Shown here piece after piece: positions 40,678-55,066 of a stretch of DNA of 64,000 nt. The notes under the pieces are model-generated. The model was not told the origin of the DNA and searched no databases. It saw only the letters and a program-made list of their open reading frames with translations. Both the position numbers and the translations under genes were made by a program. This DNA comes from an uncultured Acidobacteriota bacterium (GTDB lineage Bacteria; Acidobacteriota; Thermoanaerobaculia; Multivoradales; UBA5704): contig CAVYRF010000002.1 of the NCBI GenBank assembly GCA_963770895.1, positions 4,256,001-4,320,000 of the forward strand, read 5' to 3'. How positions within the stretch are numbered: position 1 is the stretch's first letter; every line of letters begins with the position of its first letter.

Positions 40678-43600
40678 TCAGGTCCAGGCGCCGAGCAGGT
40701 AGAAGGCGCCCCAGTCGCGGGGGTGTGGGTAGCGGCGGCGGATTTCGAGCTGGGCCTGGCGGAAGGCGTCGCGGCGGGTGGCTTGCTGGGCCAGGGCCTG
40801 GTAGAGCTCGACGAAGAAGGCGCAGGCCACGTCGCTGGCGGTTTCCCAGAGGGTGCCGACCAGGGTTTCGGCGCCGGCCAGGAGGAGGGCGGCGGGGAGG
40901 CCGCGCGGGTTGTCGGCGCGGTCGAAGCGGCCCAGGGCGGTTTCGCAGGCGCTCAGGGTGACCAGCTGCAGGCCGCGCAGGTCCTGGCGCAGCAGCTCGT
41001 GGGCGTGGAGCAGGCCGTCGGAGCCGGGCGCCGGCGTGACCACCAGGTATTGAAAGGCGGGGGCGTCGAGGTTGAGGGCGCCGTGGGTGGCGAGGTGGAC
41101 GCAGCGGGCCTGGCGCAGTCCGTCGAGCACCGCGGACTCGGTCACGGCGTCGTCCAGGATCGGCTGGCTGGCAAAGGCCTGGGCGACCAGCGTGGCCTCC
41201 GTGGCAACGTCGGGCAGCGGGTCCAGCTGGTAGGGATTGGAGCGCTGAAAGGTCAGGCCGTAGGCGGCGATCCCCTGGCGGGGCGCGGGGCCGGCCGCGG
41301 CTGGGCTGGCCGCGCCGGGGGGTTGCAGGAGCTCGATGGACGGCACCACGGTGACCGTCCATTCGTCGCCCAGCAGGCGGTTGTCGTCGAGGCCGAGCAG
41401 GTGGAGCGGTGCGTAGTGGAACGGTCCGTGGGGGACGACGATGAGGTGGTCGCAGCCTTGGCGGCGCAGCTGGTCCAGGGCGGTGCGCACGCTGCCGTGG
41501 AGAAAGAGGCTGCCGGCGATGGTCTGCTCGCGGCGCAAGGCGGCCGGGTCCAGAGTGTCGTCGAGGATGGCCTGGCGCAGGCGGAAGACGTCCGCGACGA
41601 AGGTGGAGGCGCGTTCGATGCGGTCTCCCTCCTTGAGATCGCACAGCAGGTCCAGGTCGCCCGGCACGGCGGACAGCCATTCTCCGGCGCGGGCGGCGAG
41701 CAGGGCGTAGATCGCTCGCTTGCCCTGCCATTCGCCCAGGTAGAGCTGCAACACGGCGGTGCGTGGGTCGAGGCCGCCGCGTAGCTCCTCCAGCGAAGAT
41801 GGCCGGGCCTCGGTCTGGCCGGCTCCTGCCAGCTGCCTTTCCAGCCGATCGTCGCAGCTGTGCTGGAGGTTGGTAAGGCGCTCCAGCGGTGTCCGTCCAG
41901 GCGCCGGACTGTCGGCGCGGGTGAAGGAGAGCAGGCGGATCTGGCTGTCGATGCGGCTTCCCGGCCCGGTTCCTTCGCCGGCGAGCGGCACGCTTTCGCG
42001 CAGCGCGGCGATCTGCAAGAGCAGGCCTTCGTCAGGCGTGGCCGCGGTCTGGCGGCGCGCGGGGTCCAGGCGGAGCACGGCACTGAAGCGTCGCGCCTTG
42101 GCGGCTTGCCAGGTGAGGTGGAGCAGGTTGGTGTCGACGGCGCCGGACATCTGGCGCTCGGTCAGCGCGTTGAGCAGGAGCTGGAGCAGCTCCACCGCAC
42201 GCGCTCCCAGCGCCTGGTCGAGCTGCAGGTCCAGGTCGAAGACGACGCCAAGGAAGGGAAGGAGCAGCGCGGCGTCGGCGCGCAGGCCGAGGCCGGCGAC
42301 GTAGCGCAGGTGCTCGTAGAGAAAATCGTCCAGGCCAAGCGCCAGTGCGCCGCGGAGCGCCTGGTGGTAGGCGTGGAGCGCCTGGCCGATGCGGCCGGCG
42401 CGAGCGGCGTCCACGCCGGCGCCGGACCAGAGCGACAGGCGCCAGAAGCGGATCGCCTCGGGCACCTGCGCCAGGAGTGCGGGCAGGGTCTGCTCGACGA
42501 TGTCGAGGAGCTTCAGACCCGCCGCTTCCTCGTCGCGCGCGGGGCAGTCGCGCACCAGCGCCAGCAGGGCGCCGGCGCAGCGTTCCGGGCTCCATCCCGC
42601 GGCCTGCGCCTGCTGGTTGAGGAGGCTCGCGGCGGCGAGGGTGCCCGGCGAATTGTCGACCGGCCCGTCGTAGAGCGTCGGCAGCCAGGCGGTGATCAGC
42701 GCGTTGTTGTAGCGGGCGAAGAGATTTGCATCGGCGGCGGTGGCAACCGCCGGGGCGGCGCGCTGGACCGTGGCGAGCGACAGCCGGGGGTCGATCGGGC
42801 GCAGCGCGTGCGACAGGTTGAGCAGGCTTTGCGCGGCGTCGCCCGCGCCGATGCGAGCGACGAGCGCTGCCAGCGGCACGCGCGCGGCGCGCTCCAGGAG
42901 CGCGCGATCCAGCGCCTGGCCCTGGCGCTGGGCGAGCGCCAAGAGGTAGGTGACGTCCGCGATGTCGGAGTCGGAGTCGGCGTCTGGATCCAGCAGCGGC
43001 AGCGCTTCGCGGATCGCCGCGGCGAGCTGGGCCGGCGGCGGCGTGCCCGCGGCGCGGGCGCCGCGTTCCAGGGCGTTGACCTGGCCGACCAGGGCGCGGC
43101 CGCGCTGGCGCCCCGCCGACAGCGCCGCCGCCCGGGCGAAGTGCTCGCCGGCGCAGCGCAGGGACTCTGCCGGTGGTGGATAGGGCGGCACTTCCGCCGC
43201 CGCCTGCCGGCCGCGCCGGTACCAGGCGTCGAGCACCGCCAGCCAGGCCGCGTCGTCGCCGCTGACCGGCGCCAGCAGCGGCTGGAGGTGAAGCCTTGCC
43301 AGCGCCAGGTGGGCACGTGCGGCGCGTGCGGTGTCGTGGGCCGCGAGCGCCCTGGCGAGCAGGCGGTCGCCGGCGGCGCGCGCCAGCTGGTAGCGGCGCC
43401 AGTCGGGCAGCGCGGGCAGCGCGGCGGTGACCTTGCGCATCCAGGCGGCGTCGGCCAGGTCCTGCGCCTGGCCGGTGGCGGCGGTGGCGGGCATGGCGGC
43501 GGCCGCCGTCACCAGCAGCTCGCCGAGGTCGAGTGCCGCGGTGGGGGCCGCGAGCTGATCGAGATGCGCCGCGGCGTGCGTCACGGCGGCGATATCGAGA

Positions 43601-43701
43601 GTGCCGGCGATCGGCTGCTGGGCGGCCAGCTCGCGCGCCACCGCCATGCTCAGCTCGCCGGAGGCCACGCGGGAGGCGAGCTCTGCGAGGGCAAACCTCA
43701 C
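40678..43701 (-). CDS. Large helical-repeat (TPR-like) protein with C-terminal CHAT (caspase HetF-associated) protease domain
   Basis: LIVVPHGPFHYAPLHLL, VHLATHG (His), VTLSACETALG (Cys), LLAGAETLVGTLW, HPRDWGAF. Confidence 0.88.
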   Translation of the reverse strand: MRFALAELASRVASGELSMAVARELAAQQPIAGTLDIAAVTHAAAHLDQLAAPTAALDLGELLVTAAAAMPATAATGQAQDLADAAWMRKVTAALPALPDWRRYQLARAAGDRLLARALAAHDTARAARAHLALARLHLQPLLAPVSGDDAAWLAVLDAWYRRGRQAAAEVPPYPPPAESLRCAGEHFARAAALSAGRQRGRALVGQVNALERGARAAGTPPPAQLAAAIREALPLLDPDADSDSDIADVTYLLALAQRQGQALDRALLERAARVPLAALVARIGAGDAAQSLLNLSHALRPIDPRLSLATVQRAAPAVATAADANLFARYNNALITAWLPTLYDGPVDNSPGTLAAASLLNQQAQAAGWSPERCAGALLALVRDCPARDEEAAGLKLLDIVEQTLPALLAQVPEAIRFWRLSLWSGAGVDAARAGRIGQALHAYHQALRGALALGLDDFLYEHLRYVAGLGLRADAALLLPFLGVVFDLDLQLDQALGARAVELLQLLLNALTERQMSGAVDTNLLHLTWQAAKARRFSAVLRLDPARRQTAATPDEGLLLQIAALRESVPLAGEGTGPGSRIDSQIRLLSFTRADSPAPGRTPLERLTNLQHSCDDRLERQLAGAGQTEARPSSLEELRGGLDPRTAVLQLYLGEWQGKRAIYALLAARAGEWLSAVPGDLDLLCDLKEGDRIERASTFVADVFRLRQAILDDTLDPAALRREQTIAGSLFLHGSVRTALDQLRRQGCDHLIVVPHGPFHYAPLHLLGLDDNRLLGDEWTVTVVPSIELLQPPGAASPAAAGPAPRQGIAAYGLTFQRSNPYQLDPLPDVATEATLVAQAFASQPILDDAVTESAVLDGLRQARCVHLATHGALNLDAPAFQYLVVTPAPGSDGLLHAHELLRQDLRGLQLVTLSACETALGRFDRADNPRGLPAALLLAGAETLVGTLWETASDVACAFFVELYQALAQQATRRDAFRQAQLEIRRRYPHPRDWGAFYLLGAWT

Positions 43702-45899
43702 GGCCGGGTGGCGGCCGATGTGCCGGCGGCCGGTGCGGTGTCAGCCGGTGCGGCGGCGGGGGGCGGCGCGAGCCGCGCGGTGACGTCGCCGAAGTAGAGG
43801 TAGGAGTAGAACGTCGGCGAGACGTCGCCGTACTTGTCGCGGATGGCGGACAGGACGGCCCCCACCGGCTCGCGGCGCGTCAGGATCCCGGCCATCAGGT
43901 CGCTGCTGACCGTGGCCGCGTCCTGGTCGTCGACCGCCCACAGCGGCGCGATGAAGCCGCCGAACTGGCGGCCCAGAAAGGCGTCCGCCCAGCCGCCCAC
44001 CGTGCCCAGGGCGCTGCCGGTCGCTCCCACTTCGCAGGCGTTGAAGAACACCAGCGTCCGGCAGGCCTTGCCGAGGCGGACCTCGGTGCGCGCCACCTCG
44101 CTGACGGCGAGCACGCCGTCTTCGAGGTCGATCGTCGAATTGTCGGCGGTCGACGCGGCGAAGGAGCCGTGGCCGGCAAAGTGGAGGACCGCCACGGGCT
44201 GGCCCGGAGAGCTGTTTTCCAGCAGGGCTCTGACCGCGGCCGTGGTGCCGGCGACGCGGGTGGCGCCGAATTGGGTCACCAGGCCGGCCGACTCCGCTTC
44301 GGCGCGCTGCAAGCCGCGGGCGGCGCTGGGGTAGTGCGGCGCGATGGTGAACAGGCCGCCGCCTGGCAGCTGATTGGGCATCCAGCCGTCGTAGCGCAGC
44401 AGCCACCTGGCCACCGAGTGCATGCGCGCGAGCGGCGGGTGGGTTTCGCTTTCGTCGCCGCGCGTCGGGCGCACCAGCTCCCACGGCAGGTGCGGCTCCG
44501 CGGTGAGGAACTGGATGGTGAGAGGCCGCCGGTAGTGGTCCCAGATCGCCCAATAGGCATCCCGGAACACGGCGGGCGTACGGTTCCAGAGCTGGCCGCC
44601 AAAGCCGTTGATCCTGTCCATGTGCTTGCCGCGTTCGAGGGCGGCGAACTGGGCGAACAGGGCGGCCGCTTCCGCGGCGGTGTCGCGGCCGAGGTCGGCG
44701 TAGCCGTCCAGCCGCGGCGGCAGGCCGTCAAAGCGCGTGGTGCGGAGCTGCCACCGCAGCTGGCCTGGGCTGGACGGGTCCTGGAGCGAGATGTAGACGG
44801 TGAGATCCGGTTCCTGGGCCGCGTATTCGACGGCGACCATGCCCACCGTTCCCACCGTTCCCACCGTCGCCAGCGTTCCCGGCCCGGCGGCCGCGGGGCC
44901 TTGCGGCGTCTCCTGCCGGTTTCCGGGAGGTGGCGTGGCAGGCGGCGAGGGCGCGGTCTGGGCGGGCGGCGCAGGGACCACCGTGAGCTGGCGCAGCGCG
45001 TCGCCGCAGAAGCGGTTGCCGGCGTAAAAGATCGCCTTGACGTCGAGCAGCGCGCCCGGCAGCAGTGCGCCGCGGACGCGGCCGGTGATGCGTGCCGGCA
45101 GCGACGCTCGGTTGCGGCGGATCGTCACCGTGCCGGCGCCGCCGTCGTCGAAATCGATGCCGGAGCAGATCAGGTTGACGGCAAGCGGCAGCGCGGTCCA
45201 ATCGGCCGGCAGCGCCGCGAGGCGCAGCGCGCCGCTGGCCGTCGCGGCGTCGGGGTGTTGCAGCAGGTCGACGGTGAGGGCGATCGGGCGCCCGGGTGCC
45301 GGGGGCGCGTCGGGTTCGATCGCCGGATAGCGGACCGGCGTGCTCCCTTCGTCCGCCGGGAGGCTGGGCTCTGACTCCGCGGGAGACTCCGCCAGCGCAG
45401 GCTGTGCCACGCCTCGCGGCAGCGGGCCGAAAGGCCGCAGCCACTGGTACTCCTGCGGCAGCTTGGAGCTTCTGTGGGTGGCCTGGCGCGGTTCCACGCC
45501 GGCGCCGCCAACCGCGGTGGGCAAGCCCCCCGGCTGGCTGCGCAGGACGTAGCGCCATACGCTGGGGAGGTCCTGGGAGCGGTCCGGACGCCACGAGACG
45601 TCGATCGCCGGCGGTGCCAGGCGATCCGCCAGGACCGTGCTCTGATGATGTTCGTGCAGGTCGAGCACCGCTGCCAGGTCGTTGGCATCGAGATCGGTCC
45701 GCGGCGCCAGGCGGCCGAGCCTGGCGCGCACCTCATCCGGTGTGAAGGCGTACAGATAGGGCGTGCCCCGACGCCGGATCACCACCCAGTGCGCCGTCGA
45801 GCTGAGGATCTTCTTGAGGGCGGTTGCCGCCGGCTGCTCGCCGTCGATGTAAAGGAGATCGCTGCTCCATTCGACGCTGGCCGGCGTTTGCAAGGTCAA
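43698..45899 (-). CDS. Multidomain CHAT protease (unknown N-terminal domain, beta-rich middle domain, CHAT)
   Basis: LPWELV, VLHFAGHG (His), VFFNACE (Cys), GGWADAFL, FIAPLWAVDD, YLYFGD. Confidence 0.85.
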   Translation of the reverse strand: MTLQTPASVEWSSDLLYIDGEQPAATALKKILSSTAHWVVIRRRGTPYLYAFTPDEVRARLGRLAPRTDLDANDLAAVLDLHEHHQSTVLADRLAPPAIDVSWRPDRSQDLPSVWRYVLRSQPGGLPTAVGGAGVEPRQATHRSSKLPQEYQWLRPFGPLPRGVAQPALAESPAESEPSLPADEGSTPVRYPAIEPDAPPAPGRPIALTVDLLQHPDAATASGALRLAALPADWTALPLAVNLICSGIDFDDGGAGTVTIRRNRASLPARITGRVRGALLPGALLDVKAIFYAGNRFCGDALRQLTVVPAPPAQTAPSPPATPPPGNRQETPQGPAAAGPGTLATVGTVGTVGMVAVEYAAQEPDLTVYISLQDPSSPGQLRWQLRTTRFDGLPPRLDGYADLGRDTAAEAAALFAQFAALERGKHMDRINGFGGQLWNRTPAVFRDAYWAIWDHYRRPLTIQFLTAEPHLPWELVRPTRGDESETHPPLARMHSVARWLLRYDGWMPNQLPGGGLFTIAPHYPSAARGLQRAEAESAGLVTQFGATRVAGTTAAVRALLENSSPGQPVAVLHFAGHGSFAASTADNSTIDLEDGVLAVSEVARTEVRLGKACRTLVFFNACEVGATGSALGTVGGWADAFLGRQFGGFIAPLWAVDDQDAATVSSDLMAGILTRREPVGAVLSAIRDKYGDVSPTFYSYLYFGDVTARLAPPPAAAPADTAPAAGTSAATRP

Positions 45900-45906
45900 G
45901 GCTCCG

Positions 45907-47277
45907 TCACGCGGCCCCGACCACCGCCAGGTCGGTGACCGGTGCCGCGCCTTGTGCGCTGACCTGCACGCGCCACACCCCGGCGGGCAGGTCGAACTCC
46001 CCCCGCTGCCAGCCGGTTTCGGCCTCGCGCCGCAGCTTTTCGACGAAGCTCTGGCCGGTGCCCGCGTGCGTCAGGGTGGCCACGATCTGCGGCGCGCCCC
46101 GGTCGGGCCTGGCACGCACCACGAGGGGATCGCCCGGCAGCGCGACGTCGTCCAGGTCGAGGGAGAGCGCCGCCGGCGGCGCCTCGCGGTACAGGGCGAA
46201 GTCGATCGTGTCGCGGGTGAGCAACCCCCGCAGATTGGCCAGGCAGCCATCGGAATTCTGCAGCGAGCCGTGGCATTCGGCGGCATAGATTTCGCGGAGG
46301 GCGTCGCTCAGCTCAAGCGGGGTGGCGGAGGCGCGCGGCACCGTGCCGTCGCCGCCCAGGTCCGCGCCGCCAAAGGCGCGCAGCAGCTCGACGGCGGAAC
46401 CCTGGGTGCGCGCCGTCTGATAGGTCGGCTGCTCGATGCCGACGATGGGGACCAGGGTGTAGCCGTGGTCGCGATAGTCACCCTTCTGTGCGTTGGCCGC
46501 CTGGTGTTGCTCGATCTCGGTATGGAAGGCGCGGGCCGCGTCGGCGCGTTGGCCGTCGACGTATGGCAGCTGGCCGGCCGCGGCCGCGACGCGGGCCAGC
46601 TGGGCGCCGCCGGTGTCGATGCAAGGGTAGGTGGGCAGCAGCTGGTAGACCGACGGCAGCGAGCGGAGCAGCGGGGTCAGGTCGAGGCCCCAGGGACCGA
46701 TCCCCTTCTTCATGCCGTGGACCAGAAAATCCAGCGCGTTGAGCGAGCCGCGATGCGGGGTGCCCAGGGTGATCAGCGTGCGTGTGACACGCCAGCCTTC
46801 CAGGCATTCCAGGAAGTGGCGGCAGATCAGCCCACCCATCGAGTGCGCGATCAGAACCAGCCTGGCATCGCTGTTGCCGGTGGCGTCGCGCCACCGGCGG
46901 AGATGATCCATCGCTTCCCTCTGCAGCCGTGCCGCGTGCACGCGATTGTCGAGCCGCCAGTCGTAGGGAAACGGAAAGAAATTCTGCCCGGGCGTGAGGC
47001 CGAGGTGCGCGATGAGCTCCTGCTGGATGCGCGTATAGCCGTCGATCTTGATCAAGCCCGGCACCAGCGTGACGTCCGGCATCAGGCGCGGCGCCGTGAT
47101 GCCATCGTCCTTGCCATCAGCGGGCAGCGCCAGCTGGTGAACGGAATCGCCGCCGCTGCTGGCCAGCCGCCAGATCGCTCCGGCGGACGTGCTCCACACC
47201 TCCTTGCCGTCGGCGCGCGCCAGGACGCTGCCGATGATGCCGGGCAGCAGAATGACGACGTCGCGAAAGGCTGCCAT
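45907..47277 (-). CDS. LCAT/PGAP1-like alpha/beta-hydrolase (lipase/acyltransferase) with C-terminal beta-rich extension
   Basis: LPGIIGSVL, FPYDWR, IAHSMGG (Ser), TLGTPHRGS, SVYQLLP, GDGTVP (Asp), HGSL (His). Confidence 0.85.
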   Translation of the reverse strand: MAAFRDVVILLPGIIGSVLARADGKEVWSTSAGAIWRLASSGGDSVHQLALPADGKDDGITAPRLMPDVTLVPGLIKIDGYTRIQQELIAHLGLTPGQNFFPFPYDWRLDNRVHAARLQREAMDHLRRWRDATGNSDARLVLIAHSMGGLICRHFLECLEGWRVTRTLITLGTPHRGSLNALDFLVHGMKKGIGPWGLDLTPLLRSLPSVYQLLPTYPCIDTGGAQLARVAAAAGQLPYVDGQRADAARAFHTEIEQHQAANAQKGDYRDHGYTLVPIVGIEQPTYQTARTQGSAVELLRAFGGADLGGDGTVPRASATPLELSDALREIYAAECHGSLQNSDGCLANLRGLLTRDTIDFALYREAPPAALSLDLDDVALPGDPLVVRARPDRGAPQIVATLTHAGTGQSFVEKLRREAETGWQRGEFDLPAGVWRVQVSAQGAAPVTDLAVVGAA

Positions 47278-47435: not shown

Positions 47436-47846
47436 TTAAGCCAGGGGACGCCAACCGATTGTTTCGCAGGGCACTCCGGAGGTTGAGTAGCCTTCGTTTT
47501 CGTTCTCCCTGATCTCCTCCCAACGCTGCCGTTCATTGTTCCACCAGCCTCTGCCCTCGGAATCGTTTGGGAACCGAGCTGCGTAACCACCCGATTGCTC
47601 CGGTCGATAGCTGGTCTGTACCCAGCCGGAGAGAACATCCGTAAGGCCTGGTCTGCCTAGACCATCAGGGCCGATGGTCTTCAGGTGACGGCGGGGTCCT
47701 ATGCACTGGAACACCTCTCTGGTGATCCGCATCAAGTCTCCTCCGCACGGCTCGGTAAGGCCGAGCGCCTCTCCCGGCAGTATCCTCTCTTCCCCTGGGC
47801 AGGCGCGTCCTTCGAAGCTCCTGTACTCGTCGTCGTACGATGGCAT
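47436..47846 (-). CDS. Hypothetical protein (136 aa)
   Basis: AAGGA RBS 8 nt before ATG 47846; protein-like composition unlike shadow ORFs; lower-GC patch. Confidence 0.45.
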   Translation of the reverse strand: MPSYDDEYRSFEGRACPGEERILPGEALGLTEPCGGDLMRITREVFQCIGPRRHLKTIGPDGLGRPGLTDVLSGWVQTSYRPEQSGGYAARFPNDSEGRGWWNNERQRWEEIRENENEGYSTSGVPCETIGWRPLA

Positions 47847-48001: not shown

Positions 48002-48220
48002 ATGAAGCGCAACAAGGGACACAAACTGGCCTTGCATCGCGAGACGCTGCACCTGTTGGAGCCGGCCGATCTCCGTGCCGCGGCGGGAAACATCACCACT
48101 CCGATCACGCCGCAGTGCACCGCCAGCTGCAACACCTGCGCCGGCAGCTGTGCGTTCAGCAACTGCTCGTGCGTCATCTCCGTCTGCCTCTGCAGCGTGC
48201 CCGTCGTGACCTGCGCCTGA
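48002..48220 (+). CDS. Cys-rich lanthipeptide-like RiPP precursor, 72 aa
   Basis: RBS AAGGAGG; MKRNKGHKLALHRETLHLLEPADLRAAAG|NITTPITPQCTASCNTCAGSCAFSNCSCVISVCLCSVPVVTCA; 9 Cys in the core. Confidence 0.82.
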   Translation: MKRNKGHKLALHRETLHLLEPADLRAAAGNITTPITPQCTASCNTCAGSCAFSNCSCVISVCLCSVPVVTCA

Positions 48221-48281: not shown

Positions 48282-48342
48282 TGCCGGGATCGCCCCCCGG
48301 AGCTGATCGATGAAGCGCGCGATCGGCGCTAGAATCCGCGGC

Positions 48343-49060
48343 ATGTCTCCCCTGGGGCGTGTCCTCTACTGCTTGCTGCTGCTCTGTCCGGCGCTGGCCT
48401 GTCGCGCCGCCACCGGCTCGGGGACGGATAGTGCGATCGGTCCGCTGCGCCCCGGCGATCATCGCATCGACCTGGACCACGGTGGACGGTCACGAACCTA
48501 CCTGGTGCATCTGCCGCCGGCTGCCGCGGCGGGAAAACCGCTGCCGCTGGTCCTCAACCTGCATGGCGCCGGCAGCAACGGGCAAGGCCAGCAGCGTTTT
48601 TCCGCCATGGACGAGCTTGCCGACCGGGCGGGATTCGTCGTCGTGTATCCCGACGGCACCGGCCGCTTCCGGCGGTTTCTCACTTGGAACGCCGGCACCT
48701 GCTGCGGCAGCGCGGCCCTGCAGCAGGTCGACGACGTGGGCTTCCTGGTTGCCGTCCTGGACGACTGCTTCCGCCGCACGCCGATCGATCGCCGGCGTGT
48801 CTACGCCACCGGCATGTCGAACGGCGCGATGATGGCTCACCGCCTGGCAGTGCAGGTGCCGGAGCGCTTCGCCGCCATCGCCCCGGTCGCCGGCGGCATG
48901 GTGTACCAGCGTTTCGGCGCCGGGCTGGCGGTGCCTGTCCTGCACATCCACAGCGTCGACGATCCCCTGGCGCTGTATGCCGCGCCTGCTCGGCGCCGAC
49001 ACCCTGGTGATCGACGCCAACCAGGTCATCTGGGATTTCGTCTCGCGCTTCCACCGCTGA
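48343..49060 (+). pseudogene. LpqC/PHB-depolymerase-like esterase with internal deletion and frameshift
   Basis: LVLNLHGAG, VVYPDG, WNAGTCCG, DDVGFL, GMSNGAMM, HIHSVDD. At about 48981 the frame switches; the family-type C-terminus (VIDANQVIWDFVSRFHR*) lies in another frame ending TGA 49058-49060. The catalytic His region is missing. Confidence 0.75.
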
Positions 49061-49134
49061 GCGCACCACAACGACACTTTGATGACGGTAGAAGTATTGG
49101 CCGGCTACACTTGCCGCCGGCAAGGAGATCACGG

Positions 49135-49587
49135 ATGCCCAAGCTGCCGGAAGAGGATCGATTGGCCGGGGCGCTGAGCCGCCGCGAGGCGATGCAGACG
49201 ATGGCGGCACTGGGCACCCTGCTGGGCATCGGTCGCCTGGAATCGACGCCGCTGCAGGCAAGGAGAACGATCATGGACGTGACGACCACCAAGGACGCGG
49301 CCACGGCGACGCCAAAGGTTGCCAAACGGCGGCTTGCAAACGACCGCGTGCGGGTCCTGGAGCACATCAGCAATCCTGGCGACAAGGAAGAGTGGCACGC
49401 CCATCCGGCCATGGCCGTCTACGTGGTGAGCGGCGGCACCCTGCGCATCACCACGGCCGACGGCCAGACCAAGGACGTCGAATTCGTCACTGACGACGTC
49501 CTCTTCCGCGAGCCCACCACCCACACCACCGAAAATATCGGCAAAACACAGCTGCACGCCATCCTGGTCGAGCTGCTGAAACCGTAG
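49135..49587 (+). CDS. Cupin-domain protein with twin-arginine-like leader
   Basis: AAGGAG before ATG 49135; LSRREAMQ; cupin NDRVRVLE...WHAHP...HTTENIG...ILVEL; second AAGGAG/ATG at 49273. Confidence 0.75.
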   Translation: MPKLPEEDRLAGALSRREAMQTMAALGTLLGIGRLESTPLQARRTIMDVTTTKDAATATPKVAKRRLANDRVRVLEHISNPGDKEEWHAHPAMAVYVVSGGTLRITTADGQTKDVEFVTDDVLFREPTTHTTENIGKTQLHAILVELLKP

Positions 49588-49627: not shown

Positions 49628-51325
49628 TCAGCCGCGCAGTGCCAGCGAGGGGTCTGGTGTGGGCTGGGCGGTGTGGGCGGCGGTTTGCTGGTCGGATTCG
49701 ATTCTGCCGTAGTCGAGCTTGAGGATGCGGTCGGCGACGTGGAAGTAGTGGTCGTCGTGGCTGATGACGAAGACGGTCTTGCCGCGTTGCTTGAGCTCGG
49801 GGAGGATCTCCAGGTAGAAGATGGCCTTGAAGACGGGGTCCTGGTCGGCGGCCCATTCGTCGAACAGGTAGATGGGACGGTCTTCCAGGTAGGCGGTGAG
49901 CAGGGCGAGGCGTTTGCGCTGACCTTGGGAGAGGTCGATGGTGGAGAGGGTGCCGTGGGTGATCTGGACCTTGCGGTCCAGCTTCAGGCGCTGCAGGTAG
50001 CGGTGGGCCTGCTGGTCCAGCTCGCCGCCGGCGGCGGCCAGGCCGAAGAGCTGATCGAAGAGGAAGAAATCGGCGAAGACGACGGACCAGAGCTCGCGGT
50101 AGTCCTCCAGGTCCTGGGCGCGCACGGGGCGCCCGTCCAGGCGGATCTCGCCGGCTTCGGGGACGTAGAGACCGACCAGGAGCTTTGCCAGGGTGGTCTT
50201 GCCGCTGCCGTTGCCGCCGACCAGGAAGATGGTTTCGCCGCGCTCGAAAACGGCGTCGATCGAGCCGAGCTGGAAGGTCTCTGCCTCGTTTTCCTTGTAG
50301 TAGGTGTGGCGGATGCCGGACAGCTCCAGCTGCCGCCAGGGGCGCGGGGGCGCGGATTGCGGCGCGACGCCTTCGCTTTGCAGGGAGAACCCCAGGTCTT
50401 CGACGGTCTTGGTGGCGATGCTGGCGCGCGAAAAGAAGGGCAGGGTGGTGAGGACGACTTCCAGGGTGGCCAGGATCTGGAACAGCACGATCGTGTAGCT
50501 GAGCAGGATCTTGCGATCGACGTGCTGGATCTGCGGCAGGAGCAGGACCAGGAAGCCCAGGACGATGAAGAACAGCACCTGGCCCATGCTGGCGCCGGCG
50601 GCGAGCAGCACGGAGCCCTTGCGGTATTCGGTCTGGTACAGGTCGGTGCTGGCGTGCACGGCCTCCAGGAAGGAGGCGCGCCGCGCGCGGTGCATCTTGA
50701 GTTCCTTGGTGCCTTCGGTGATGGCGCGGACCTGGCCGGTGATTTCGTCGAGCCGCAGCCGGGACAGCTGGTAATACCGCAGCGCCTTGATCAGCGGCAG
50801 CTGGTAGGCCAGGATGCCGATGACGATGAACACCAGCACTTCGAGCAGCATGGTGATCGACAGCCAGCCGAGGTAGCCGAGGCAGCTTGCCAGGACCGCA
50901 AGGTTCATGCAGAGCAAAGGCACCGAGCCGATCGAGTCGATGATCAGGGTGATGTCGTTGGTGAGCGTGGTCAGGAGGCGGGGAGCGCCCAGGGTTTCCA
51001 GCTGCTTGAGCGGCGCGGCCAGGACCTGCCCGGAGAGGCGTACGCGCAGCGACAGCAGCGCCTTTTGCGACAGGTGGAGCAGGAATACCTGCGACACGAA
51101 GCGGCAGATGGGCAGCGCCACGCACAGGCCCACGAAGGTGGCGACCAGGAGCGGGGGAGTGTTGCCGGTGCGGTTGAGGATGCTGGCGGTCAGGGCGATC
51201 AGGCCGGTGCTGGCCACGCCGCCGGCGATGCCCGCAAGGGTGATGAAGGTGAGCGCCCACTGCGCGTGCGGGATGCCCTTGCAGAGCCTTATCAGGAACG
51301 AGACTAAACGGAGGAGTTCGCGCAT
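49628..51325 (-). CDS. Cyclic-peptide export ABC transporter (SyrD/PvdE/YojI family)
   Basis: EGTKELKMH, GGNGSGKTT, VFADFFLFD, LSQGQRKRLAL, FDEWAADQDP, VISHDDHYF. Confidence 0.93.
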   Translation of the reverse strand: MRELLRLVSFLIRLCKGIPHAQWALTFITLAGIAGGVASTGLIALTASILNRTGNTPPLLVATFVGLCVALPICRFVSQVFLLHLSQKALLSLRVRLSGQVLAAPLKQLETLGAPRLLTTLTNDITLIIDSIGSVPLLCMNLAVLASCLGYLGWLSITMLLEVLVFIVIGILAYQLPLIKALRYYQLSRLRLDEITGQVRAITEGTKELKMHRARRASFLEAVHASTDLYQTEYRKGSVLLAAGASMGQVLFFIVLGFLVLLLPQIQHVDRKILLSYTIVLFQILATLEVVLTTLPFFSRASIATKTVEDLGFSLQSEGVAPQSAPPRPWRQLELSGIRHTYYKENEAETFQLGSIDAVFERGETIFLVGGNGSGKTTLAKLLVGLYVPEAGEIRLDGRPVRAQDLEDYRELWSVVFADFFLFDQLFGLAAAGGELDQQAHRYLQRLKLDRKVQITHGTLSTIDLSQGQRKRLALLTAYLEDRPIYLFDEWAADQDPVFKAIFYLEILPELKQRGKTVFVISHDDHYFHVADRILKLDYGRIESDQQTAAHTAQPTPDPSLALRG

Positions 51326-51398
51326 GGTTGAGTCGCTGGGTCGGGGACCGTCGATAGGTCTTGTGCGGTGAAGGCCCCGCGACGTGACCAAGGCGCGG

Positions 51399-51431
51399 CA
51401 TGCCGGCGCGGGCTGCTGCCGCGCCGGCATG
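51399..51431 (-). terminator. 13-bp stem-loop between lanA and the exporter (mRNA-stabilising or partial terminator)
   Basis: CATGCCGGCGCGG-GCTGCTG-CCGCGCCGGCATG. Confidence 0.6.
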
Positions 51432-51446
51432 GACCAGCGATTTCGC

Positions 51447-51653
51447 TTAGTAGCAGTTGTAGGGCGGACAGGGCGAGCAGATCGCCGAGCCGCCGTTGGT
51501 GTACTTGATGACACCCGCGGCGACGCGCTCCAGGCCGGCGTCGACGGTGATGAGGGCCGCCGGATTGGCCGGCAGGCTGGCGCGCTCGGCGGCGGAAAGG
51601 CTCAGGTAGTAGTCTTCGTCTCTCCAGGCGCGGGCGATGTCGAGTTTCTTCAT
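51447..51653 (-). CDS. lanA: Class II lanthipeptide precursor (mersacidin/lichenicidin-type leader), 68 aa
   Basis: GAGGAG RBS; MKKLDIARAWRDEDYYLSLSAAERASLPANPAALITVDAGLERVAAG|VIKYTNGGSAICSPCPPYNCY; immediately downstream of lanM. Confidence 0.9.
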   Translation of the reverse strand: MKKLDIARAWRDEDYYLSLSAAERASLPANPAALITVDAGLERVAAGVIKYTNGGSAICSPCPPYNCY

Positions 51654-51701: not shown

Positions 51702-54700
51702 TCAAGACTCTGGCGGCGGTGCCAGGCGCACCACCGCGGGCACTCGGTGCGGCGCGGCGACTCGCAGCAGGCCGTGGCCGATGCCCGCCAGGCCGATCAT
51801 CAAGCCCGGCGCTTCGGCGGCGACGGCGATGCCCAGGCGCCAGCCGTGGCGGCGGATGTCGGCCAGGATGCCGCCGGCCAGGCGCCCGGCGCGCGCGGCG
51901 AGGTCCGGGTCGTCCAGCACGGTTGCCGCAAGGGTGAGCGCCTCCAGGTTGCCCAGATCGCCGTGGCAGAGGCTGTGGCCTTTGCCGAAGCCGCCGGCGA
52001 GGGTGGTGCGGAGGGCGGCCTGGGCCTCCGTACGGGCGAGCGCCAGGTCGTCGCCGGACAGGCGGCGCAAGCTGTCGAGGCGGCCCAGGGCGATGCCGGG
52101 GGCGCCGTGGCACCAGGCGCACATGAAATGCGGCTGGCCGGGCACGACCTCGGCGCCGGCGCGCAGGTCCGGCCAGTTGCCCAGCTCGGCTGCATAGAGC
52201 GACCGCTCGTAGTCCAGGGCTGCCAGGGCGGCGTCGCGGTAGCGCGCGGCACCGGTGGCTTCGGCGAGCTGCAGCAGCGCCCACGAGATGCCCGCCGCGC
52301 CGTGCGCGAAGCCGGCGAGCGGCCGCGGACCGGCCAGCGGAATGATCCACCCCAGGCCGCGCTCCATCGGCTGGGCGAGCTCCAGGAGCCGGTCGCCGCA
52401 CTGCACGGCGAGCTGCAGCAGCCAATGGGCGCCGCGCGTGCGCCACAGCCCCAGCAGGCAGACCAGGCAGCCCGCGGCGCCCGCCACCACGTCCCCATGC
52501 GGGTCGCGGGCGATTTCGGGCGCCAGGCGCAGGGCGCAGGCTTCGGCCTGGTCGAGCAGAGCCGCGTCGTCCCAGAGGGCGGCCAGGTGGGTCAGGGTGT
52601 AGAGCACGCCGCCCCAGCCGGCAAAGGCCCCGATCGAGCTGAGGAGCGTCGACGTCGGGGCCGCCTGCTCGAGCATCGTCACGGTGGCGGCGCGGGCCAG
52701 GTCGGCGGCCCAGGCTTCGCCGGTGACAGCACCCAGGTAGCCCAGGAACAGCGCGATTCCTGGGGAGCCGAGATACAGGTCGGGGCCCGCCGGGGCGAGC
52801 ATCGATTTGAGGGCGTTGGCCTGCGGTTCGGGGCCGAACCACACCGCGCCGCGGCCGCGGCGGAACGCCAGCGCCTCCAGGCGGCGCCCCACGGCCAGCG
52901 CCGCGACGAGCAGCTGGTCCGCCGCCGGGGAGCTGGCCGCCGCGACCAGCTGGTAGTCCGACGGCGGCGCCGGGACCGCCGCGGCGCCGGCGAGCGAGTT
53001 GCGGACGATCCAGACCTGCCGCGCGACGTCGGCGTCGTCGAGCCGCCGCAGGCGGTCGCCGACGGCGTCGAGGCCGCTGCGGTCGAGCACGTCCGTCAGT
53101 ATTTCGCCGTCGCTGGTCTGCACGTCGCGGCTGTCGGGCCACGTGGTGAACATGGGGATGTCGCCGTGCTGCAGGTCGCGGTGCTCGGCCGGGACCAGCC
53201 GTTCGAGCTCCGGGTAGTCGCCGGCGATCGTCCACAGCCGGTCGAGCAGGCGGTCCCGCTCCAGGCCGTCGCCCAGGACGAATGGGTGGTGGCTGTCGGC
53301 GAGCAGGGTGCCGTACGCCATGGTGAGGCGCACCAGGACGCGGACCGGGTGGTGGGCAAAGGCGGCGAGCGGTCCGTCCGGGGCGAGCAGCTGGTCGCGG
53401 TGCCGCGCGAGCAGGCGCAGCATGCGCTCGCAGCCTTGCGCCACCGCATCGACGTACGGCGCGAGCGGCACGTCGGCGCCGCCGAGCGTCGGTCGGTGCT
53501 CGCCGCCGACGGGCGCCTCCAGGTGCTGGTGCAGGAATCGCATCCGGTCGGTTCCCGCGTCCGTCACCCGCAGGATCGGCTGCGGTATGACCTGTCCCGC
53601 GGTCGCCGCCAGGCCGCTCAGGTCGATGCCGTCCTGGTCGCCCTTGCCGCCCCAGGACGCATCGGGCAGCAGGCCCACGCGCAGCACCGTGTCGGGCAGC
53701 GGCGTCTGCGGCGGGGTGGCGTGGCCCCAGGTTTGATCCAAGGGGTGGAACAGCGCTTCGAGGTCCACCAGGAACGGATGCTCGCCGGCCGCGATCAGGT
53801 TTTCGTGGTGCATGTCGGTCGCGGACAGCAGGTAGAGCAGCGCCAGGTACCCTCCCTGGCGCTGGTAGAAGCGCTCGACCTGCGCGGCGTCGGCGCAGGG
53901 GTGCGCCGTCACCACCGCCGCCCAGCCGTGGTCGCCGGCGTCGAGCACCGGCAGGAGCTGCCAGCCGGGGGCGAAGCCGTGCCGTTCGGTCCAGGCAAGC
54001 AGCTGCTGAAAGGTCGCTTCGACCGCCATCGAGCGCGGCTTGTAGATGAGCTCGACGCCTGAGTCGAAGCGCAACCGCGTCACCGACCGGCCGCCGCGGT
54101 GCAGGTCGCCCAGCCCGGTGCGCACCTCGACCAGCGTGCCCAGGTCCTGCCGGCCGGCGACCAGGACGCCCAGGCGCGGCGCGTCGGCGACCAGGTGCGC
54201 GCAGAGCTCGGCGCCGGCGTCCACCCATCGCCCGATGCATTCGACCGCCTGGCGCGCCGCCACCGGATATTGGCGCAGCAGCGCCAGCGCCACGCCGGGT
54301 TCGCGCAACCAGGCGACGAAGCTGGCGTAGCGATCTTCGGCAGTGTCGCCGGTCAGCCGGTTGTCCTGGGCGGCCAGGTGGAGCTCCACGGCGAGCGTCC
54401 GCTTGAGCAGGAAGAGCAGGCGGGGCCCGATGGCGCCGGCAAGCGAGGCAGCCGCCTGGCCGGGCTCGAACAGGCGCGTGCCCGAGGCGGCGGCGAGCGC
54501 CCGCAGCTGCTCCGTCAGGCGCGAAAAACCGCGGTCCAGCAGGGGCCGCACCAGCTCCAGCAGGGTCCCCTGGTGATCCGGCGTCAGCGCGGCGGCGGGG
54601 AACGGCGCGGTGGGCGCCGTGGTAAAGGCCGCCGCCAGCTCCTGCAGCCAGGCCGGAGGGCGTGCGGCGCCGGCGCGCGACGCCAGGGAGTCCGGGGTTT

Positions 54701-54953
54701 CGCCAAGCAGCGCCAGCAGATCGGCGAGATCCATACCCTCGCGCGCCAGGCGCCGCCGGAACACGCCGTCGCGCGGACTCTGCGCCTGCCAGCGGGCGAG
54801 GATGCGTGCCGCCCGATCTGCATCCGGAGGGGCCGCGGGCGGCACGCCGGCCGCCCGTCCGGCCGCCGCGCGCTCGCTCAGCGTCAGGGCTTTGTACCAA
54901 TCGGCGGCGGCCAGGATGTCGCCAGGGTCCATCAGCTCCGCCGTCGATTCCAT
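51702..54953 (-). CDS. lanM: Class II lanthipeptide synthetase
   Basis: Dehydratase GDLHRGG, LIYKPRS, TDMHHENLIA, VDLEALF; cyclase DLYLGSPG, GFAHGAAG, WCHGAPG, SLCHGDLG, GLMIGLAG. Start 54953 or 54992. Confidence 0.95.
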   Translation of the reverse strand: MESTAELMDPGDILAAADWYKALTLSERAAAGRAAGVPPAAPPDADRAARILARWQAQSPRDGVFRRRLAREGMDLADLLALLGETPDSLASRAGAARPPAWLQELAAAFTTAPTAPFPAAALTPDHQGTLLELVRPLLDRGFSRLTEQLRALAAASGTRLFEPGQAAASLAGAIGPRLLFLLKRTLAVELHLAAQDNRLTGDTAEDRYASFVAWLREPGVALALLRQYPVAARQAVECIGRWVDAGAELCAHLVADAPRLGVLVAGRQDLGTLVEVRTGLGDLHRGGRSVTRLRFDSGVELIYKPRSMAVEATFQQLLAWTERHGFAPGWQLLPVLDAGDHGWAAVVTAHPCADAAQVERFYQRQGGYLALLYLLSATDMHHENLIAAGEHPFLVDLEALFHPLDQTWGHATPPQTPLPDTVLRVGLLPDASWGGKGDQDGIDLSGLAATAGQVIPQPILRVTDAGTDRMRFLHQHLEAPVGGEHRPTLGGADVPLAPYVDAVAQGCERMLRLLARHRDQLLAPDGPLAAFAHHPVRVLVRLTMAYGTLLADSHHPFVLGDGLERDRLLDRLWTIAGDYPELERLVPAEHRDLQHGDIPMFTTWPDSRDVQTSDGEILTDVLDRSGLDAVGDRLRRLDDADVARQVWIVRNSLAGAAAVPAPPSDYQLVAAASSPAADQLLVAALAVGRRLEALAFRRGRGAVWFGPEPQANALKSMLAPAGPDLYLGSPGIALFLGYLGAVTGEAWAADLARAATVTMLEQAAPTSTLLSSIGAFAGWGGVLYTLTHLAALWDDAALLDQAEACALRLAPEIARDPHGDVVAGAAGCLVCLLGLWRTRGAHWLLQLAVQCGDRLLELAQPMERGLGWIIPLAGPRPLAGFAHGAAGISWALLQLAEATGAARYRDAALAALDYERSLYAAELGNWPDLRAGAEVVPGQPHFMCAWCHGAPGIALGRLDSLRRLSGDDLALARTEAQAALRTTLAGGFGKGHSLCHGDLGNLEALTLAATVLDDPDLAARAGRLAGGILADIRRHGWRLGIAVAAEAPGLMIGLAGIGHGLLRVAAPHRVPAVVRLAPPPES

Positions 54954-55066
54954 CGCGAAACTTCTTATATTCTTTTCATTTCCATTCGACAATACGATGT
55001 AGTCCTATCTGTTTTCGCGGCGAGCTCTTGTCCCGCATCCTGGCCCAGGCGTCACCCATACACTAG

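Follow-up and report, generated by a model that had tools for sequence, protein, structure and literature searches.

Several bacterial systems are known in which a protease of the caspase clan acts on a partner protein. In Lysobacter, a 33-kDa alpha/beta-hydrolase (LcHydrolase) is cut by its caspase (LcCaspase) at the R-G sites R73 and R117; its fragments are toxic and the cleaved form kills E. coli, and its substrate is reported as unknown (Evans et al., 2025; 10.1101/2025.11.14.688446). Such a module had been predicted in VMAP systems, where a hydrolase gene was reported to lie always beside caspase-VMAP genes, transglutaminase-like VMAP peptidases being rare (Kaur et al., 2020; PMC7159879). 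The cascade from SAVED-CHAT to PCaspase in type III-B CRISPR is a known bacterial two-protease cascade (10.1101/2023.06.23.546230). Here we analyzed a 64,000-nucleotide stretch of contig CAVYRF010000002.1 from an uncultured Acidobacteriota bacterium (hereinafter the window and the host), in which a gene for an LCAT-like hydrolase (gene 1) is followed by two CHAT protease genes, chatA (gene 2) and chatB (gene 3; Table 1). An earlier note on this DNA had proposed a fixed order of action, from a sensor TPR-CHAT through a second CHAT to a lipase, and did not cite the SAVED-CHAT/PCaspase cascade. Our reading, to which we assign a probability of roughly 0.55, is that the hydrolase and chatA constitute a defence module gated by cleavage: the protease would free a membrane-attacking predicted phospholipase. 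This reading draws on gene pairing, fusions, folds, catalytic residues, motif enrichment, and the defence neighbours of relatives.

The conserved unit is the hydrolase-protease pair, not the trio. Loci came from searches at the genome and order levels and from metagenomes, viral contigs, and plasmids. The counts exclude the window, 14 loci that were duplicates or nearly identical, two loci obtained by way of chatA, and the CBS loci of the host's own genome. A family locus was defined by a hydrolase profile score of at least 200 and adjacency by a protease-type gene on the same strand no more than 300 bp away; a locus was evaluable if each of its flanks reached 1 kb or more. Such a neighbour was found in 35 of the 40 evaluable family loci versus 3 of the 38 evaluable control loci with distant LCAT-like hydrolases from the same scans, the loci being related to one another and 17 of them having served to build the hydrolase profile. 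When all loci were counted, the values were 44/59 and 5/80, respectively. The protease partner is exchangeable: the 59 family loci held 14 transglutaminase-like peptidases, 13 other CHAT proteases, 12 TCAD7-type partners (four of which end at a contig edge ahead of any CHAT domain), and five C14 caspases. Partner proteases in relatives were often fused to STAND/NACHT, TPR, WD40, VMAP, or GUN4 domains.

Fusions and phylogeny gave a similar picture. Among the best 150 hydrolase representatives, all of which scored above 450 bits, 14 exceeded 550 aa, and 11 of these 14 were hydrolase-CHAT fusions that contain one CHAT only. By eye, at least six fusions carried the Ig entry motif of the chatA type and four a TCAD7-like stretch. 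In the tree, the window hydrolase fell into a 7-row clade (100/100) spanning three phyla (Acidobacteriota, beta- and gammaproteobacteria, and Gemmatimonadota), every member of which had a chatA-type partner, including L001, whose partner is assumed to be encoded on a different contig of its assembly, and L002, where this applies to the C-terminal part of the partner. The sister group consisted of three rhizobial plasmid loci. That the trio consists of chance neighbours has to be considered in a host genome (8.2 Mb) with 34 CHAT matches and one TCAD7 match, where six CHAT-match pairs lie at most 8 kb apart (two of the six within single open reading frames [ORFs]); two adjacent CHATs alone are thus unremarkable there. 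A random 3.5-kb stretch of this genome has a CHAT within 3.5 kb in 4% of cases. Given the adjacency counts, the fusions, the co-inheritance across phyla, and the recurrence of chatB in place in L003, chance is a very improbable explanation of the trio, and for genes 1 and 2 it is refuted.

The position of chatB was much less constant. The full trio in the same order was found in the gammaproteobacterial locus L003 (54%, 38%, and 38%, the chatB orthologue at 38% over 916 aa), and among the five closest loci whose downstream DNA could be inspected, two (the window and L003) had chatB after chatA. It was not found after chatA in L165, L166, and L167 or in the rhizobial loci L172, L173, and L177, and no orthologue was found in four of the five genomes tested, which include those of two close hydrolases and are incomplete assemblies. 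A second caspase-clan gene was present near five of 15 other TCAD7/chatA cassettes with flanks of unequal length (L003, L008, L009, L012, and L167), compared with 4% at random places in the host genome. We therefore take the pair as the unit, to which further proteases of varied kinds are often added. The protease-lipase theme of the earlier note was right: a protease-coupled lipase module for defence or conflict is well supported by the adjacency counts, the fusions, the defence-island neighbours of relatives, and the published caspase-activated hydrolase. The trio was overstated, and its fixed order of action is not supported as a conserved system; the lack of joint conservation that the earlier note had named as a refutation largely applies to the trio, not to the pair. 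That order is further weakened by the candidate sensor domain that the middle protein, chatA, carries itself.

A stricter version of our reading applies to the window locus only: chatB would sense the invader and cut chatA after R142, and chatA would then activate the lipase. The trio in L003, the overlap of chatB with the stop codon of chatA, the second proteases near other cassettes, the conserved arginine in the chatA linker, and the SAVED-CHAT precedent are in its favour. However, chatB is missing from the loci named above, cassettes that lack a second protease keep the linker arginine all the same, and the fusions manage with a single CHAT; we regard this version as unlikely.

Gene 1 encodes an LPLA2/LCAT-like alpha/beta-hydrolase, as judged from Pfam (LCAT, E 4e-14, 53 bits versus a cut-off of 21), fold, and catalytic triad. 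The AF2 model reached a pLDDT of 84.5, and the best Foldseek matches were lysosomal phospholipase A2 and LCAT (E 1e-14 to 1e-11, TM ~0.5), which share its Ser-Asp-His motifs. In contrast to these enzymes (~17% identity), gene 1 has an additional Ig-like domain, and no signal peptide was seen; the maximal 19-residue hydropathy, 1.8, was located on the first beta-strand. The full Ser-Asp-His triad reported in the earlier note was confirmed as S146/D310/H336, kept in 150, 149, and 148 of the best 150 representatives, respectively, and the motifs it had listed for the CHAT proteins were present (HFAGHG/FNACE in chatA and HLATHG/LSACE in chatB), as were AHSMG, GDGTV, and CHGSL in the hydrolase. Phospholipase activity is predicted from the fold, and acyltransferase activity is possible. 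The Ig-like domain was modelled with seven strands at a pLDDT of ~90 and gave weak beta-sandwich matches over ~100 columns. A profile search of 1.84 billion representatives returned 1236 clusters at E<=1e-30, a count that takes in more distant relatives.

Both chatA and chatB are CHAT proteases by Pfam and by their His-Cys dyads, chatA also by fold. For chatA, Pfam gave CHAT (E 5e-12, 46 bits versus a cut-off of 24) and TCAD7 (E 3e-8), and H577 and C622 were each kept in 38 of 39 homologues. For chatB, the CHAT match was stronger (E 6e-50, 171 bits versus 24), and it is a candidate TPR-CHAT: the N-terminus had no Pfam TPR match at E<=0.1, and the Atlas gave TPR-like neighbours at 0.91-0.92. 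The N-terminal 700 residues of chatB retrieved, among 7999 scored candidates, only themselves and two other proteins. The three minus-strand ORFs, with a 7-bp gap and then a GTGA overlap, were confirmed from the sequence. The second TTG (45893) is the more probable start of chatA, with GGAG 8 nt ahead and a length of 731 aa as in the database protein; from this start the gap to the hydrolase gene is 13 bp rather than 7 bp.

The TCAD7 domain is possibly a divergent CBS-like module. An hhalign comparison with CBS gave 49 gap-free columns with a score of 22.3 and a probability of 26%, and all 60 shuffled controls scored lower (maximum 13.2). Its topology, taken from the whole-protein chatA model, was consistent with the beta-alpha-beta-beta-alpha unit of CBS, and the Atlas listed CBS as a neighbour at 0.88, which is a lead only. 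Structure searches with the whole chatA model barely probe residues 1-186; the profiles of chatA and TCAD7 found no significant match among PDB sequences, and a metagenome scan with chatA gave no matches. TCAD9 has been tied to VMAP systems (PMC10910872), and we infer a similar origin for the name TCAD7. In a more far-reaching reading, TCAD7 would be a CBS-like adenine-nucleotide sensor and a nucleotide-gated protease relay would free an LPLA2-like death effector; across the family, one zymogen would be under the control of CHAT, C14 caspase, and transglutaminase-like proteases, three chemistries with no relation to one another that all read the same hydrophobic-Arg-small linker, with an initiator CHAT added in loci like that of the window. 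We consider this combination doubtful.

In three rhizobial chatA-like proteins (L172:10381-12297, L173:10392-12260, and L177:10365-12245), another N-terminal domain replaces TCAD7 and is followed by the same Arg motif; from inspection by eye, we take this domain to be BON-like.

Arg-small-residue motifs were enriched in the linkers of both partners, which suggests that they are candidate cleavage sites. A hydrophobic-R-[GSA] motif occurred in 68 of 148 hydrolase linkers versus 19.3 in shuffles (maximum 33). In the chatA linker, R-[GSA] was found 5-18 residues past the domain at the TCAD7 position in 33 of 39 homologues versus 14.8 in shuffles (maximum 25), and Asp- or Lys-small motifs were not enriched there. 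Across the 150 hydrolases, RG occurred in 119 at position 176, a core motif after the nucleophile, in 39 at position 364, and in at most 20 within the first 100 residues. The mechanism that we propose would start with a signal acting on TCAD7, or with a cut after R142 that removes TCAD7 through self-processing or another protease. The CHAT domain of chatA would then cleave the hydrolase behind an arginine, R364 in the linker that precedes the Ig-like domain being the likeliest site, and the released phospholipase would harm the membranes of its own cell, so that the infected cell would be arrested or killed. In this scheme, chatB would be an add-on helical sensor-protease, probably providing an extra input to the pair and dispensable in most relatives.

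Several observations weigh against this proposal. The hydrolase linker of the window reads Y-R-E, with an atypical P1' residue, and the closest clade has F-Q-R-A/D instead of the R-G of the family (RG in 0/6). Arg-rich linkers of GC-rich genes can arise without cleavage, and the homologues are not independent. As for the pairing, the C14 and transglutaminase-like profiles were built from partner genes, so that they detect proteases more readily in the family than in the control; the transglutaminase-like assignment depends on a motif and weak Pfam matches (E 2e-4 and 8e-3); and five of the 40 evaluable loci had no adjacent protease by the profiles, one of them having a trypsin-like gene and one a CHAT two genes off. 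Further, the window locus and several close loci were surrounded by ordinary genes. No defence neighbours were found at the window locus itself, and the defence role suggested in the earlier note drew no backing from PADLOC-DB 2.0, in which the three genes matched no system profile (0 families at E<=1).

Defence neighbours were found at related loci. On plasmids, the pair was flanked by Gabija and IetAS in L177, adjoined IetAS and a Tn7-like element in L173, and lay near AbiE and an annotated caspase in L172, these three plasmids being related to each other. The relatives L018, L019, and L178 sit in VMAP-MoxR-vWA operons. The distribution was patchy: the hydrolase family was present in eight of 299 other genomes of the host's order and in none of the 400 genomes of a phylum sample, and no full-length copy was found in nine congeners; L006 lies in a genome of the host's own family. 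Among viral contigs, 12 distant LCAT-like matches were obtained, none from the family of the window hydrolase. CHAT-CHASE2 genes recurred beside the hydrolase (L003:6165-9979, L006:6376-9974, and L008:7291-9792), two of them with a FecR-like neighbour.

Alternatively, the pair may regulate or signal and kill nothing: the hydrolase would make or remove a lipid or acyl signal, or act as an LCAT-like transacylase, and the protease would bind or trim it for stress or developmental control. The fold shared with LPLA2/LCAT acyltransferases, the CHASE2-CHAT and FecR-like signalling genes adjoining some of these loci, the many CHAT matches of the host, and the numerous loci amid housekeeping genes fit such a role, but the patchy distribution, the plasmid defence islands, and the partners fused to STAND/NACHT/VMAP conflict domains do not, and we judge it rather unlikely.

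The module proposed here, in which chatA would cut the hydrolase, resembles LcHydrolase/LcCaspase in that a hydrolase gene is coupled to a protease of the caspase clan whose sensor fusions vary, and in its Arg-small-residue motifs as candidate cut sites. However, LcHydrolase is ~33 kDa and receives its two R-G cuts in the N-terminal half, whereas the window hydrolase has 456 aa, lacks conserved R-G sites in that half, and ends in an Ig-like domain; the partner is a CHAT (separase-like) or transglutaminase-like protease. VMAP systems share with the window family the operons of L018, L019, and L178 mentioned above, while neither the trio nor the gene on either side of it is a MoxR, vWA, or VMAP gene.

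The identity of the window hydrolase with the hydrolase of VMAP-caspase systems was considered and rejected. This comparison was made with Streptomycetaceae hydrolases, not with the sequence of LcHydrolase itself: 40 of 77 VMAP-C places in 81 Streptomycetaceae genomes were fetched, and six of the 40 loci held a hydrolase with two R-G motifs ahead of a late nucleophile, a C14-VMAP partner being confirmed for two of the six. None of the six scored with the profile of the window family, and 52 columns, around the nucleophile elbow, could be aligned. The window cassette would thus act like the published module while comprising another hydrolase family and another protease class.

Further likenesses were partial. 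As in SAVED-CHAT/PCaspase, the window locus has two caspase-clan proteases, and one CHAT bears at its N-terminus a small domain with possible nucleotide binding; in contrast, both window proteases are CHAT, the end effector would be a lipase, and the second protease is optional. No SAVED domain was matched in the trio by Pfam or PADLOC, and the operon has no cas genes. The Canu caspase-nuclease defence (PMC12799240) likewise places an Ig-like-domain protease beside a gated enzyme, with an effector family swapped among protease classes, but its effector is an MBL nuclease and its protease a MALT1-like C14 caspase. Csx29/Craspase and separase belong to the CHAT clan; the cassette differs in having no Cas7-11, and TCAD7 and Ig take the place of TPR in the N-terminal part. 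In an NCBIfam scan of the trio, the sole match was Csx29, far under the cut-off. We found no description of a hydrolase-CHAT module in the literature, although Burroughs and Aravind (2020), the paper on the separase structure, the source data of Kaur et al. (2020), and the supplements of Evans et al. (2025) may list the family.

Other loci provided additional observations. A transglutaminase-like Cys-His domain of ~230 aa, in every case encoded by the gene next behind the hydrolase and joined to NACHT/STAND, VMAP, GUN4, or TCAD2, was found in L016, L018, L019, L051, L055, L066, L067, L072, L140, L144, L146, L174, L175, L176, L178, and L179; it matched no Pfam family above the cut-off save for one weak DUF553 match, and by its sequence looks like an undescribed protease module. 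In L012, L013, and L020, frameshifts split the hydrolase and CHAT genes, possibly through assembly errors. Outside the family, a distant LCAT-like hydrolase gene in the host's own genome (L147, C2:3342000-3345500) is divergent to an adjoining DUF4062-CHAT gene. Distant hydrolase-CHAT fusions with LCAT or DUF7379, macro-like M17_N, and TPR-S domains (L114:254-3826, L123:6465-11852, and L169:8193-11513) indicate that lipase-CHAT coupling arose or spread outside the family of the window hydrolase as well.

The trio is flanked on one side by a convergent beta-propeller gene of an RND/beta-propeller operon and upstream by a lanthipeptide cluster. Its DNA was unmatched in nine congeners and one other family member, and since the flanks are not neighbours there, no insertion site can be defined. 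The lanthipeptide cluster contains a 72-aa Cys/Ser/Thr-rich lanthipeptide-like precursor (48002-48220, plus strand). A class II synthetase of the LanM type (51702-54992; DUF4135 and LANC_like) is located ~3.5 kb from it, and the cluster also has an ABC exporter (49628-51514). By eye, genes of the AMP-binding, aminotransferase-like, and transketolase-like kinds were recognized nearby. Directly upstream of the hydrolase gene, a 136-aa ORF (47436-47846, minus strand) had no family matches and lies in a stretch with a GC content of 0.61 versus 0.70-0.74; it may be a remnant or no gene. A single ORF (48310-49587, plus strand) unites a PHB-depolymerase-like esterase and a cupin and may represent two genes fused by a frameshift.

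Table 1. Coordinates of the trio and its predicted features in the window.
Feature	Position	Strand	Remarks
Gene 1, LPLA2/LCAT-fold serine hydrolase	45907-47277	minus	456 aa; predicted phospholipase effector
Catalytic triad codons	within 46270-46842	minus	S146 (46840-46842), D310 (46348-46350), H336 (46270-46272)
Low-confidence linker from catalytic core to Ig-like domain	46174-46209	minus	contains R364; pLDDT<50 at 358-365
C-terminal Ig-like beta-sandwich of hydrolase	45910-46173	minus	residues ~369-456
Gene 2, chatA: TCAD7, linker, Ig-like, CHAT protease	43698-45899	minus	731-733 aa; cognate partner of hydrolase
TCAD7 domain, chatA N-terminus	45504-45878	minus	candidate sensor or pro-domain; Pfam TCAD7 residues 13-89
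Disordered linker of chatA	45354-45503	minus	pLDDT<50; R142 at 45474-45476 (T-H-R-S), candidate activation cut
CHAT region of chatA	43755-44837	minus	H577 (44169-44171), C622 (44034-44036)
Gene 3, chatB: helical (TPR-like) N-terminus and CHAT	40678-43701	minus	1007 aa; accessory
CHAT dyad of chatB	H873 (41083-41085), C919 (40945-40947)	minus	Pfam CHAT residues 743-1004

Effectors gated by proteases form a class of bacterial immunity that keeps growing. The hydrolase family described here is large, with a clear phospholipase fold, named candidate cut sites, and single-gene fusions that are easy to test. If our proposal is true, CHAT proteases would gain a membrane-lipid effector and TCAD7 its first function, and a transglutaminase-like peptidase would stand in for a caspase.

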